From a virus (Duplodnaviria; Heunggongvirae; Uroviricota; Caudoviricetes), in IMG/VR virus record IMGVR_UViG_3300029305_011318: a stretch of 64,000 nucleotides of DNA; one strand, 5' to 3'. Numbering within the stretch: position 1 is the stretch's first letter; each line of letters starts with the position of its first letter. The notes under the pieces are model-generated. The model was not told the DNA's origin and did no database searches. It worked only from the letters and a program-made list of their open reading frames with translations. Below, in pieces: positions 1,982-58,446 of the stretch. The position numbers and the translations under genes are program-made.

Positions 1982-2013
1982 TATACTATACGGTGTTTTT
2001 TTTATTTTGAAAG
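1982..2013 (-). promoter_or_regulatory. Box-2 promoter-like motif (CTTTCAAAAATAAAAAAnACCGTATAGTA in gene orientation)
   Basis: tatactatacggtgttttttttattttgaaag on the + strand. Sigma-A-like TTTCAA-16/17-TATAGT. Followed immediately by a box-1 copy at 2007..2034. Confidence 0.45.
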
Positions 2014-2096
2014 ATAATCATATATGTTTAAATTTTTCTCGAAATATAAAAAACACTTATTAAATACATAATAAGTGTTTCTTGAATTTTGATTTA

Positions 2097-2873
2097 TTAC
2101 ATAATTCTGATAATCTGCTCGTATAAAATAATATCTTTGTCATTGATAGCACGATTAATATGCATATGACCCATAAAATGTTTTTTATATTCGGTATTGA
2201 TTCGAATTTCTTCTAAATATTGTGTAAGCCTATCTTGTTCATATAAACCATGACCAAGTAATGCAGTCACACTTGCAGATGGACTATGTGTTATAATATA
2301 ATCTACTTTGTTATTATGTTTCTTGAGATTATCTAACCCATTTTGCATTTCTTCTTCTGTTGGAAGTTCTTCCGTCCACCAAGATAAGCCTTTAATACGA
2401 TACATGTATTTGCCTTGTTTTTCGAGATTACGGGCTTTTTCTTTCCAATCTGGGTCATTTTTGTCTAAAATACCATCAGAAATATCATGAGAAGAAGCTC
2501 CACCAAACGCAAAGAATTTTTTATCTCCTAAAGTAAATACTTCTCCACGCATTAAGTGTAATACATGTGGTCTGATTTCATGTACTTTTCCGCCATTCCA
2601 TTCTTTTACGGGATAAGTGGCTAAACGTTCATGATTTTCATGATTTCCATCTACAAATACGGTTGTAAAAGGTTTGTTTTCTAACCAATCTAACCAATTT
2701 TTTTCTTGATTGGATTCTTCCGGCATCCAAACTAATCCAAAATCACCATTAATAATTACAATATTTTCATTTTTATTGCCACTAAATTCTTTTTGTTCAT
2801 AAAAATTTTCTACATTTAATCGTCTTGGATTTCCATGAATATCTCCGGTGCTCCAAATAGATTTAATTGTCAT
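2097..2873 (-). CDS. Calcineurin-like metallophosphoesterase
   Basis: GDIHGN, GDFG, DGNHEN and GHMH phosphoesterase motifs. 258 aa. Confidence 0.75.
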   Translation of the reverse strand: MTIKSIWSTGDIHGNPRRLNVENFYEQKEFSGNKNENIVIINGDFGLVWMPEESNQEKNWLDWLENKPFTTVFVDGNHENHERLATYPVKEWNGGKVHEIRPHVLHLMRGEVFTLGDKKFFAFGGASSHDISDGILDKNDPDWKEKARNLEKQGKYMYRIKGLSWWTEELPTEEEMQNGLDNLKKHNNKVDYIITHSPSASVTALLGHGLYEQDRLTQYLEEIRINTEYKKHFMGHMHINRAINDKDIILYEQIIRIM

Positions 2874-2950
2874 ATATTCACTTCCTTTTTAAATCAATAT
2901 ACTTATTGAATCATTTTTTACACTCCTTAAACCTTGATGAAATGGAAAAT

Positions 2951-3271
2951 CTAAAGATATACGCCACTGAGTTTGAAAAACATTCTGGATACATCGCTCA
3001 TTCTTTCAATTAACTCCGTAGATTTCTTTTCTTTATCAATTATCTTCTTCATATCCTCTTCTGAAAGTTCAGTGTATTCGAGCAATCTTTTTACCCAATC
3101 TCTAAGCTTATAGAGTTCTTCTAAATCACTTGCAATACTTTCATTCTGTGATGCAATTATCTTTTCTTTTTCTTTTAGTTGTGATTCCAATTCTCTAATT
3201 CTCTTGTTATACTTTGCTCTTTCTTTATCAAACGCTAAATCTTTAGCAGATTTCTTATAATTTGATGCCAT
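2951..3271 (-). CDS. Coiled-coil hypothetical protein
   Basis: ORF with ATG at 3271 preceded by GGAGGG. K/E-rich heptad-like sequence. The tool-called TTG start at 3292 is less likely. Confidence 0.5.
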   Translation of the reverse strand: MASNYKKSAKDLAFDKERAKYNKRIRELESQLKEKEKIIASQNESIASDLEELYKLRDWVKRLLEYTELSEEDMKKIIDKEKKSTELIERMSDVSRMFFKLSGVYL

Positions 3272-3279
3272 AAACCCTC

Positions 3280-3429
3280 CTACCAAAACCAATAATCATC
3301 GTACCAATCGTCATAATAATCATCGTAATAACTGTAATATTCATCTTCACATTCATATGAATAAGGACAATCAAAATAACAATAATCGTCCCAATAATCA
3401 AAATCTCCAAAGCAACACGGACATGCCAT
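3280..3429 (-). CDS. 49-aa Cys/Tyr/Asp/Trp-rich peptide
   Basis: MACPCCFGDFDYWDDYCYFDCPYSYECEDEYYSYYDDYYDDWYDDYWFW. ATG 8 nt downstream of GTGAGGA. TAG stop abuts the RBS of the next gene. Confidence 0.35.
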   Translation of the reverse strand: MACPCCFGDFDYWDDYCYFDCPYSYECEDEYYSYYDDYYDDWYDDYWFW

Positions 3430-3672
3430 TTGTCTTATCCTCACTTTCTCTCAATAGAATTGAATTTTCAAAGACAAACTATTCGTCTTTCATTGCAACT
3501 TTTACAATTGTTCCAATAATCTGAATCAATAAATCTTCCTGTGTAATATTGTTTCTTCCAGTTAATAAAGTTCCTCTGTTAGCCATATTTTCAAAAGTTT
3601 CAATAAGTTCATATACATTAACTGTTTCGTTCATAACATATCCTCTATTTTCCTGTTAAAACTCGTGTTCTA

Positions 3673-3954
3673 TTACCAATTATATCCAAAAAGACCTACT
3701 CCAAAATCAAGTTCTTTAATCTTTTCATTTGCTTCTTCTTCAGTTTCAAACACATATTCGTTCATGTCAGAAAAGTCACAAAAGACAAACCCGCATGGTT
3801 GATTAATTTCAAATATAACAATCCCTTCATTTGGATTAATTTCATATACTTTAATAGGATATACACCATCATATGTTTGTCTAGAAACACCTATAATTCC
3901 ATATAGCGTCTGTCCAACCTCAATATTTGTGTGTATTTCATATACAAAATTCAT
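3673..3954 (-). CDS. Hypothetical protein
   Basis: 93-aa ORF, co-oriented and tightly packed. Confidence 0.4.
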   Translation of the reverse strand: MNFVYEIHTNIEVGQTLYGIIGVSRQTYDGVYPIKVYEINPNEGIVIFEINQPCGFVFCDFSDMNEYVFETEEEANEKIKELDFGVGLFGYNW

Positions 3955-56828: not shown

Positions 56829-56871
56829 AAATATTCTCCTTTGTTATAAATAGTAATATATTTAATTTATA

Positions 56872-56897
56872 TTTATATGGATAAAATTTTCTCAAAA
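56872..56897 (-). promoter_or_regulatory. Box-1 promoter-like motif
   Basis: tttatatggataaaattttctcaaaa, with hairpin cctctataa-aaaa-ttatagagg (56909..56931) just upstream in gene order. Confidence 0.55.
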
Positions 56898-56949
56898 ATA
56901 GGTAAATAAAAACCTCTATAAAAAATTATAGAGGTCAAGTTCATATATT

Positions 56950-57453
56950 TTAATGTGTTGGTAAAAATATTGCTTTCCCAATAATATCTTTCTTTTTTAC
57001 AAGCCCAACTTCCGGAAATCGACTATCAACACTATTATTGCGATTATCGCCTAAAACAAAATATTCGTTTTGCTTTATATAAATTGGTTCTGAAGCGATA
57101 CCAGTATATAAAATCGTATCTAAATCTAATTTTTCTTGATATATTTGATTATTAATAATTATATCGCCATTTTGATTAATTTGTATGGTATCTCCCGGCA
57201 ATCCAATAATACGTTTAATAAAATATACGCCTCGTGAACAACTTTGTGGATGAAAAGCAATAATATCATTTCTTTGTGGTTCTTCAATATGATAAATAAA
57301 CTTATTAGCAATAAAATTATCCCCATCATGTAATGTTGGGTACATAGAACTTCCAGAAACTTTACCTCTTTGGGCAACAAAAACGGTAATAATAAAAGTT
57401 AAAAAAATTATACTATAAAATAAAATATCAAAAATTTTATGTTTTTTTCTCAT
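56950..57453 (-). CDS. lepB: Signal peptidase I, bacterial P-type (LepB)
   Basis: SGSSMYPTL, KRIIGLPGD, GDNRNNSVDSR boxes. N-terminal TM. Confidence 0.8.
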   Translation of the reverse strand: MRKKHKIFDILFYSIIFLTFIITVFVAQRGKVSGSSMYPTLHDGDNFIANKFIYHIEEPQRNDIIAFHPQSCSRGVYFIKRIIGLPGDTIQINQNGDIIINNQIYQEKLDLDTILYTGIASEPIYIKQNEYFVLGDNRNNSVDSRFPEVGLVKKKDIIGKAIFLPTH

Positions 57454-58307
57454 AAATACCTCTTATAAAGGAGTTACCCACCAATCATAATGATTGATGG
57501 GTATCACATACATGGACTATTTATAGCAACGAGAGAAAGATGCAAAACAGTAAAAACTATTTCGCAAATACAAATATTGAGATTTGAACTCATACCTATA
57601 AGAATAGGATAATCATTTGATTATTGTGAACCATTTTCACTTTATATTTGTTTTCTTAACATTATATTGTAAGCTTTAGACAGTTAGGTTATTCCATTAG
57701 GTTTATCCGCATGTCGGACTCCTTTATAGGATTCCTAACTATCTAACTTACAAATAAAATTTCATTCCGTCCTTCGACGTACTCCACTAAATACCTTGTT
57801 ATTCCACCATAGTCAAATGAGGCTGAACCTAAAAATCGTCATTTTTAAGCTTCTCAAATCTGATTTCTCAGTAAAAAACTAGTAGGATTTTACCTACAAC
57901 TTTCATCTAACATTCAGCAAAATGTTTTTCTATTAAGATATAGACAAAATATCTTCCCAAATATGACTTAGACTACTCGTACTCACCACTTTTGTTATAG
58001 TCTTCTTACGAAGGCATCAAGTCATAATCGCATTGGTTGGTATTCCTTTGAGGGATATATGCCTACCACAGCACTATATCAAAGGTTATTCTCCACAGGA
58101 GCGTCTATTGTTGCGACCAAAAGAGTGATGTGTTACAATTCAATATTTAATTTTGCACTATAAACCAGATTTTGGGATTTTCCCATTCAAACAAATTCAT
58201 TACTGAATTCGTTAAGTATTAAATAATAAACGTATCCGTCTACTATTCATACATTTTGGTTTATATCCTTGCGCCCGGTCAAGGGTCATTCACAAGGTTA
58301 AATGAAA
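57454..58307 (-). ncRNA. ~850-nt ORF-free, GC-elevated block adjacent to tRNA-Gln; candidate large structured ncRNA (GOLLD/ROOL-like). Strand assumed from context.
   Basis: No ORF of 60 aa or more in any frame across ~850 nt, inside an otherwise tightly packed element. Locally higher GC than the flanks. Many short inverted repeats (e.g. gatattttgtctatatc). Directly flanked by a tRNA and the box-2 promoter (58414..58446). Confidence 0.35.
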
Positions 58308-58379
58308 CAGGGGTAGAAGGATTCGAACCTTCGAATGCAGGAGTCAAATTCCTGTGCCTTACCGCTTGGCGATACCCCT
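58308..58379 (-). tRNA. tRNA-Gln (anticodon UUG)
   Basis: AGGGGTA-TC-GCCAAGCGGTAAGGC-A-CAGGA-ATTTGAC-TCCTG-CATTC-GAAGG-TTCGAAT-CCTTC-TACCCCT-G. U33 and A37 present. Box-2 promoter about 35 nt upstream. Confidence 0.85.
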
Positions 58380-58413
58380 AAATGAGAAATTTTATATCTT
58401 TTCTCTTTGGTAT

Positions 58414-58446
58414 TATTACTATACGATGTTTTTTTATTTTTGAAAG
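58414..58446 (-). promoter_or_regulatory. Box-2 promoter-like motif upstream of tRNA-Gln
   Basis: attactatacgatgtttttttatttttgaaag. Gene orientation: CTTTCAAAAATAAAAAAACATCGTATAGTAATA, i.e. TTTCAA-16-TATAGT. Confidence 0.5.

Follow-up and report, generated by a model that had tools for sequence, protein, structure and literature searches.

We analyzed a 64,000-nucleotide (nt) stretch of DNA from a tailed phage (Caudoviricetes; IMG/VR record IMGVR_UViG_3300029305_011318), referred to here as the window, and identified in it eight near-identical, promoter-like copies of a motif, box 2, which reads CTTTCA, 15 bases, CGTATAGTAAT. Box 2 appears to be a genuine, if not very unusual, second class of promoters in a prophage, next to a more abundant class, box 1. 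We put at about 0.5 the probability that the host sigma-A RNA polymerase reads box 2, with a phage factor probably adjusting its use, and that box 1 is the class of a sigma factor encoded by the phage. The two boxes were first described in an earlier note on this DNA, several claims of which are taken up below.

The box 2 motif and its copies

The motif yCTTTCA-N15(16)-CGTAyArTAaT has exactly eight copies in the window, all of them intergenic and all on the minus (coding) strand (Table 1). These are the eight intervals listed in the earlier note, and the box is present in every one, the consensus given there being written in gene orientation. The relaxed pattern CTTTCA-N14-17-CGTA[TC]A[GA]TA matches eight times on the minus strand, and there are no matches on the plus strand or in 300 first-order Markov shuffles. 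A literal 32-nt consensus finds nothing on either strand at up to three mismatches, because the spacer varies in length and the motif is split into two blocks. With a two-block weight matrix, a scan that the note had proposed, the eight sites stand apart at 28-38 bits, and the next-ranked site in the window scores 12 bits. The set is a closed, discrete class, without sites of intermediate score.

With TATAGT taken as the -10 element, CTTTCA occupies positions -35 to -30. Seven copies have a 15-nt spacer between CTTTCA and an invariant CG, the copy at 34390 has one of 16 nt, and the distance from CTTTCA to the -10 hexamer is correspondingly 17 bp in seven copies and 18 bp in one. The hexamer is TATAGT in five copies, TATAAT in two and TACAAT in one, and T-12, A-11, A-9 and T-7 are each found in 8/8. 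Upstream of it are Y-15, C-14 and G-13 (CGTA in 8/8 copies, CGTATA in 7/8). Besides the CG, five bases of CTTTCA (C, T, T, C, A) are invariant, as are an A at -6/-5 of the spacer end and, within TAyArTA, the bases T, A, A, T and A. The spacer is A/T-rich but variable, with T-tracts in two copies and A-tracts in six. The upstream element had been given as TTTCAA, which is correct for six of the eight copies, the other two having TTTCAT. Within an ACCG that had been called invariant, the CG is indeed constant, whereas the A is found in only 7/8 copies and the base that follows it is C in five and T in three. Neither RNA secondary structure nor dyad symmetry was detected in box 2. Box 2 is therefore unlikely to act at the RNA level or as a dimeric operator, and both roles were rejected.

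The copies behave as a promoter class, as had been proposed: they are strand-locked, intergenic, placed after terminators and at sensible distances from genes and tRNAs. They are spread over 56 kb, each upstream of a gene or tRNA and in the same orientation. Six of the eight come directly after a stable hairpin with a terminal T-run (-13 to -18 kcal/mol; a terminator scan flags two of the six), so that the layout at such copies is terminator, then box, then gene. The predicted transcription starts, about 7 nt downstream of the -10, lie 23-100 nt ahead of a Shine-Dalgarno sequence and ATG, or 31 nt ahead of tRNA-Gln. Because the spacer varies while the two blocks stay invariant, selection on contacts is a better explanation for the conservation than recent copying or duplication.

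The division into two classes also stands. Box 2 is distinct from the more abundant box 1, and the two are in tandem at ~1984-2046, where the head-to-tail fusion that had been described is real. The sigma-70-family factor that the element encodes (29327-29902) adds to the case for two classes.

Table 1. Box 2 copies, the units that they head, and other features of the window (open reading frame, ORF; amino acids, aa; predicted starts are approximate)
Feature	Position	Strand	CTTTCA	Predicted start	Description
Box 2, copy 1	1982..2013	-	2008-2013	1978	CG 1991-1992, TATAGT 1985-1990; heads 52-aa gene 1775-1933
Box 1 upstream of copy 1	~2020-2027 (CATATAT core)	-			In tandem, directly upstream of box 2
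Box 2, copy 2	4966..4999	-	4994-4999	4964	Variant -10 TACAAT 4971-4976; after hairpin and T-run; heads Thymidylat_synt-family (ThyA-family) gene 3976-4941, then genes down to metallophosphoesterase
Box 2, copy 3	31518..31549	-	31544-31549	31514	After hairpin terminator; heads 53-aa zinc-ribbon gene with two CxxC (31274-31435); downstream genes run to bidirectional terminator 29903-29946
Box 2, copy 4	34364..34395	-	34390-34395	34359	Sole copy with 16-nt spacer to CG; -10 TATAAT; adjoins terminator 34399-34424; heads eight small genes, 34269 down to 31658
Box 2, copy 5	39689..39721	-	39716-39721	39686	Downstream of terminator 39760-39788; heads 63-aa Cys-rich gene 39446-39637, then small genes
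Box 2, copy 6	45408..45441	-	45436-45441	45406	Variant; -10 TATAAT, T-rich spacer; after 1811-aa gene, abuts hairpin and T-run; heads genes 45026-45355 and 44657-44995
Box 2, copy 7	52993..53025	-	53020-53025	52990	Heads 59-aa Cys-rich ORF 52783-52962, tRNA-Met 52667-52740 and 80-aa ORF 52385-52627
Box 2, copy 8	58414..58446	-	58441-58446	58411	Predicted start ~31 nt ahead of tRNA-Gln
Box-2-like outlier	40375..40424	-			TTTACA-17-(cgt)TATAGT, then three tandem TATAGTAAA repeats; upstream of gene 40080-40358
Sigma-70-family factor	29327..29902	+			191 aa; TIGR02937; only plus-strand gene
Tyrosine integrase	60049-61434				Next to tRNA-Thr fragment; all DNA to its left is one integrated element
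tRNA-Thr(GGT) 3' fragment	61644-61689				46 nt; marks attachment site
TetR regulator	61739-62362				Host gene, right end
AcrB-type pump	62369-63985				Host gene, right end

Candidate readers of box 1 and box 2

Box 2 had been called sigma-A-like. This is borne out by the -10 element and the 17-bp spacing, and not by CTTTCA or the invariant CG. The -10 is near TATAAT, with A-11 and T-7, the hexamers are spaced within the 17 +/- 1 bp of primary-sigma promoters, and the conserved stretch from -16 to -4 is the region contacted by a full-length primary sigma. We suggest that box 2 is a bipartite promoter of sigma-70 geometry, and that the eight copies would start eight units, running from right to left, of a ~125-kb prophage. 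Host sigma-A polymerase would melt the DNA at TATAGT/TATAAT via T-12, A-11 and T-7, 17 bp downstream of CTTTCA. Box 1, with its CATATAAA core, would be read by the phage sigma. Because CTTTCA (-35 to -30) and CG (-14/-13) are invariant and non-consensus, box 2 is probably tuned beyond the needs of bare sigma-A. The likeliest tuner would be a phage accessory protein that touches the -35 box or modifies sigma region 4. Alternatively, the promoters may be deliberately weakened for low constitutive expression.

Box 1 (TTTTGAGAAnnTTTAnnCATATAAAnATA) is a near-contiguous motif of ~32 nt with 21 minus-strand copies in the window (e.g., at 1235, 9527, 13953, 20829, 44020, 56880 and 59955). Three more copies, at 12962, 14183 and 19596, were identified on a contig that extends the element to the left (L036). 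The TTGAGA of box 1 lies 10 nt from CATATA and 12 bp from TATAAA, and there is neither a frame with TAnnnT nor a T at -7. Judged by this arrangement, box 1 cannot serve as a sigma-A promoter; since its geometry is unfit for that factor, it would need a phage factor.

The phage sigma is a very divergent sigma-70-family protein that matches TIGR02937 with 52.9 bits (cut-off 42.9) over residues 16-180. Generic TIGR02937 and SigH-like models fit best, the top match among solved structures is the sigma-H factor 3mzy, and Pfam identifies a region-4-like helix-turn-helix alone. No relative besides the protein itself was found in a word-indexed set of 5.8 billion proteins, and none in IMG/VR. The best annotated phage relatives found by tblastn are hypothetical proteins of ~100-kb Enterocloster phages (32% identity, 85% of the length, E 7e-6), and weaker matches are to sigma-like proteins of the SPO1 group. 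The promoter of the sigma gene has the box 1 core ACATATAAG at 29290 (ACATATAAG...ATAAG), with the upstream block displaced. It also has TTGAAA 18 bp from TATAAG, unlike every other box 1 copy. The gene is flanked by a divergent promoter region (28916-29326) and by a bidirectional terminator with an 11-bp stem (29903-29946), which it shares with the convergent gene 29947-30570.

Two promoter classes were also identified in one of the Enterocloster phages, CB457P2 (OP172754.1). The first comprises 8-9 perfect TTGACA-N14-TGnTAnnnT promoters in the non-structural half, a form with no site in our window. The second is the hairpin-associated TACATAWWWW of the structural module (8 intergenic vs 1 coding, with a few sites elsewhere), which resembles the box 1 core (A/C)CATATAAA and not box 2. 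Exact 10-mer counts missed the promoters of CB457P2; repeat finding and targeted patterns found them. From this comparison we infer that the sigma family pairs with the CATATA-type class and that the other class belongs to the host sigma. The box 1 core ahead of the sigma gene and the unsuitability of box 1 for sigma-A likewise suggest box 1 as the target of the phage sigma. CB457P2 also has ~200-bp tandem repeats containing GGTTGACATAA at record positions 88879-89334.

Promoters of the host type are canonical. In the closest host relative found (L084, whose AcrB pump is 81% identical), the promoter of the intact tRNA-Thr is TTGACA-18-TGgTATCAT and that of mgtE is TTGACA-18-TAATAT. Clostridial sigma-A promoters are TTGAAA/TATAAT-like (PMC4031146). 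The window has a canonical promoter, TTGCAT-16-TGgTATAAT, at 17974-18001, and the only other repeat-independent promoter-like site is a TGa-extended one upstream of the integrase gene. Downstream of the promoter at 17974-18001, in the region 17357-18089 (minus strand), come a long, perfectly paired hairpin (17868-17934) and a small ORF for a hydrophobic product (17480-17653). This may be a module that belongs to neither box class and is toxin-like or expressed during lysogeny.

Several points weigh against assigning box 2 to host sigma-A. CTTTCA matches TTGACA at 3/6 positions, without T-35 or G-33, and yet is invariant; CG at -14/-13 is likewise invariant, in place of the TG at -15/-14 of an extended -10, which strong Firmicute promoters have and which would help sigma-A. 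With host-type promoters being canonical, a class optimized for bare sigma-A should look unlike box 2. The link between the phage sigma and the CATATA-type class comes by way of a 32%-identical homologue, for which sigma dependence is assumed, and genes for other sigma factors or activators may lie in the remaining ~64 kb of the phage. In addition, box 2 loosely resembles TcdR-family promoters (TTTACA-17-GTTATA), and its CGTATA is identical to the -10 of the Bacillus subtilis extracytoplasmic function (ECF) factor sigma-W, which would suggest direct reading by the phage sigma, or by a second, unseen one, instead.

A bolder proposal, which we hold tentatively, is that box 2 is unusable by unmodified host sigma-A, and that CTTTCA and CG are contacts for a phage specificity factor, which could be the orphan 191-aa sigma or else an activator redirecting sigma-A. 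If so, box 2 would define a phage-timed regulon made up of the tRNA-Gln-ROOL unit, tRNA-Met, the zinc-ribbon genes and the ThyA-family gene, and its recognition code would be unlike any described sigma consensus. Should a phage factor read the -35 and CG, this would amount to a specificity new among sigmas or activators, and would provide an orthogonal promoter part for use in Firmicutes. Otherwise, box 2 would be one more lineage-specific phage promoter consensus.

It is also conceivable, but in our judgment unlikely, that box 2 is the regulon of the 191-aa phage sigma in the manner of ECF/TcdR-like factors, with sigma-4 reading CTTTCA and sigma-2 reading CGTATA, and that box 1 is read by a factor from the unseen half of the phage. 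The spacing of box 2 is rigid, as for two-domain sigmas, and the phage sigma has sigma-2 and sigma-4 regions only. An alignment pairs its region 4.2 (EIAYIIKCSHQNIYK) with the SRQ segment of the Clostridium tetani BotR/TetR sigma, whose target is TTTACA-17-GTTATA; as in box 2, an A-rich tract comes next. Furthermore, sigma-A leaves the invariant non-consensus bases unexplained. However, the promoter of the sigma gene carries the core of box 1 rather than box 2, which gives no autoregulation via box 2, and the phage with the closest homologous sigma has the box-1-like TACATAWWWW as its repeated motif that is not of sigma-A type. T-7, A-6 and the conservation from -16 to -4 suit a primary sigma better than an ECF factor, box 2 has no AAC-type -35, and a second, unseen factor would be required for box 1. 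Overall similarity of the phage sigma to the TcdR family is nil. TcdR/BotR membership was rejected on a BLASTP comparison with the C. tetani BotR-type sigma (E 1.7, only 15 residues aligned), and region 4.2 has SHQ where that family has SRQ.

Reading of box 2 by an alternative sigma of the Clostridia host (sigma-D/FliA-like, ECF or SigI-like) seems improbable. The CCG-TATA of box 2 is loosely like the -10 of sigma-D, GCCGATAT, and like the CGWA -10 of SigI/ECF factors, and there is an MCP-signalling gene on the element. Nevertheless, no known consensus fits both halves of box 2, which has no TAAA at the sigma-D position and no AAC/CCC-type -35. There is no box 2 in 11.7 kb of the closest host-relative DNA, and its only occurrences among 2.9 million viral contigs and the JGI metagenome contigs are chance matches. 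Finally, the copies are very similar to each other, and the hairpin-plus-box cassettes resemble the mobile promoter/stem-loop cassettes (PeSLs) of T4-type phages, but it is very improbable that the box is an operator, partition or replication protein site or a passively copied, functionless remnant of a terminator-promoter cassette, given the lack of dyad symmetry or iteron arrangement, the dispersal over 56 kb in constant co-orientation and always with a gene or tRNA downstream, the variable spacer between two invariant blocks (the opposite of neutral recent copies), and a -10 block with the exact signature of an open-complex-forming element.

Units downstream of box 2 and the prophage that carries them

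The genes downstream of box 2 are those named in the earlier note: tRNA-Gln, tRNA-Met, the Thymidylat_synt-family gene and genes for small Cys-rich proteins. Copies 1 and 3-6 head runs of very small genes, and two to three of the first genes are zinc-ribbon-like with CxxC pairs. In the earlier note, the box 2 genes were considered likely to be early. Genes for nucleotide metabolism and small genes are found under box 1 and box 2 alike. The box-2-like outlier has a -35 more canonical than that of box 2, and its weight-matrix score lies outside the box 2 set. Two box 2 leaders have in common a 9-mer, GTAAACTGA, at 1951-1959 and 31491-31499 (minus strand), ~20-30 nt downstream of the -10 in both and absent from the other six. 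A canonical promoter, TTGTTC-N13-TGaTATAAT, was identified on the plus strand at 52349-52376, in an intergenic gap, antisense to ORF 52385-52627 and the tRNA-Met unit.

Box 2 copy 8 is followed by tRNA-Gln (58307-58380, minus strand) and then by a ROOL RNA (Rfam RF03087; 57748-58321, minus strand; 294 bits, a full-length model match), so that the unit spans 57748..58380. ROOL begins within the last 14 nt of tRNA-Gln, with no gap; the two would therefore form, almost certainly, one primary transcript. Co-transcription has been suggested as the reason that ROOL and GOLLD RNAs are found near tRNAs (PMC5737381), and the order box 2, tRNA-Gln, ROOL fits this suggestion. ROOL is a large ornate RNA of unknown function, here put in a defined unit with a concrete predicted promoter. 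Downstream of ROOL is a tRNA-like T-arm remnant, GGTATGAGTTCAAATCTCAATA, at 57575-57596. A copy of box 1 at 58618 lies ~190 nt upstream of copy 8, with a hairpin and T-run between them. This structure, at 58474-58551 (minus strand), between box 1 at 58618 and the box 2 edge at 58446, has a 10-bp G+C-rich stem around ~48 nt, with a T-run behind it (-16.7 kcal/mol). It may represent a short RNA made from box 1, or else a terminator that insulates tRNA-Gln.

The window has ~28% G+C and its genes are almost all on the minus strand. A 127-kb JGI contig carries the same DNA with 100% identity and reaches 9.4 kb past the left edge of the window, and a 128,061-bp contig is also recorded. As identical longer contigs extend leftward, the window would be the integrase-proximal half of a ~125-kb prophage. 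All other contigs that carry the element are 100% identical metagenome assemblies. The left extension encodes RNA ligase, SIR2, a nicotinamide mononucleotide transporter and the anaerobic ribonucleotide reductase NrdD, which is split by an intein with a LAGLIDADG domain (L036 16287-19550). In the window we identified genes for ThyA-family and NrdG-like radical-SAM proteins, HNH endonucleases, tRNA nucleotidyltransferase, SPFH and bactofilin proteins, signal peptidases, a leucine-rich repeat protein and many small unknown proteins. No structural genes were visible among the window genes.

The host is an uncultured Clostridia-type Firmicute. Named relatives of its pump are from Clostridium, Lachnospiraceae and Acetatifactor metagenome-assembled genomes (~56-62% identity). 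The counterpart region with an intact tRNA in the host relative is at L084 5367-5439, and an ORF call at 61469-61732 that overlaps the tRNA fragment is probably spurious. Two direct repeats of CTGTGTAAAAA (61494-61516) lie upstream of the integrase gene, and three, in the region L020 9697-9947, lie upstream of the 72%-identical integrase of a 131-kb IMG/VR phage. These repeats are probably arm-type or regulatory sites.

Exact box 2 patterns gave only chance matches in IMG/VR and JGI metagenome contigs (inside coding sequence or on unrelated contigs), as did the box 1 pattern in IMG/VR. That the box 2 consensus is found nowhere else in the collections searched is expected, because the lineage has no sampled relatives. 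In GTDB genomes, no integrase relative exceeds 34% identity, and the sole IMG/VR relative (L020), with 72% identity in the integrase and 73% in the phosphoesterase, lacks both boxes over 21 kb. Two groups of homologues were rejected as box carriers. Those of ThyA (65% identical) are from unrelated phages with a different upstream motif, and those of a 733-aa PcfJ-like protein are on contigs that have neither box and show a distinct repeat of their own (TTTTCTGTCATAT). Two such phage-like contigs have only this PcfJ-like protein in common with the element. One, a 93.6-kb ENA contig (L082), has at least 10 copies of a post-terminator motif, TTTTCTGTCATAT(C/T)TTT..ATCAAA; the other, a 35-kb Logan contig (L081), has the post-terminator motif TTCT(G/T)TCATACT. 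These motifs appear to be another lineage-specific promoter code.

Taken together, box 1, box 2 and the phage's own sigma would allow nearly all transcription units in the visible half of the prophage to be mapped from sequence alone.

Comparison with known systems

Discrete promoter classes, tandem promoters, terminator-promoter cassettes and a phage sigma are standard in large phages. The added interest here is in the non-canonical -35 and CG positions and in the box 2-tRNA-Gln-ROOL unit.

Box 2 shares a rigid bipartite form and a -10 containing (C)GT(T)ATA with promoters of the ECF sigma-W type and of TcdR/BotR/UviA. The sigma-W-type promoter is TGAAAC-N16-CGTATA. The CGT core of ECF -10 elements is present in every box 2 copy, whereas the GGAAC/TGAAAC of their -35 is not: CTTTCA holds no conserved AAC, and the spacing to CGT is 15-16 nt. 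The clostridial group-5 promoters of TcdR/BotR/UviA are TTTACA-17-GTTATA (PMC4031146). Like box 2, the TcdR type has a T-rich -35 that ends in CA, with an A-tract behind it. It differs in that CTTTCA and TTTACA match at 4/6 positions when aligned at CA, in GTTATA as opposed to CGTATA, and in a spacer of 17 bp (tetX) as opposed to 15-16 bp. Unlike both sigma-W and TcdR promoters, box 2 also has conserved T-7, A-6, A-5 and T-4, and its spacing is 1-2 bp shorter.

The middle promoters of T4, which depend on the MotA box and sigma appropriation by AsiA, resemble box 2 in combining a good primary-sigma -10 with an invariant upstream box other than TTGACA, in a phage that has other classes as well. 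The MotA box is centered at -30, 11-13 bp from the -10, whereas the upstream block of box 2 is at -35 to -30 with a 17-bp spacer. No MotA or AsiA homologues were identified in Pfam, PHROG and NCBIfam scans of ~70 window proteins, many small ones of which are unannotated.

The temporal classes of SPO1, phiEco32 (gp36) and T4 provide a broader parallel. As here, there are several dozen short phage-specific boxes in two or more discrete classes, with tandem and post-terminator boxes, and the host primary sigma serves one class and a small phage sigma-70-family protein another. The early promoters of SPO1, T4 and phiEco32 are near-consensus TTGACA/TATAAT. In contrast, the sigma-A-like class described here has CTTTCA and CG, and the element is an integrated prophage known from sequence alone.

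The Enterocloster (Lachnospiraceae) phages CB457P2 and CB473P2 (~100 kb) share with the element a homologous sigma, co-oriented gene blocks, the order hairpin then promoter, and a single-block motif of CATA type (TACATAWWWW). Apart from the sigma, only NrdG-like and HNH proteins are common to these phages and the element. The difference lies in the second class, which in the Enterocloster phages is the canonical TTGACA-N14-TGnTAnnnT and in the prophage is CTTTCA-N15-CGTATAGT.

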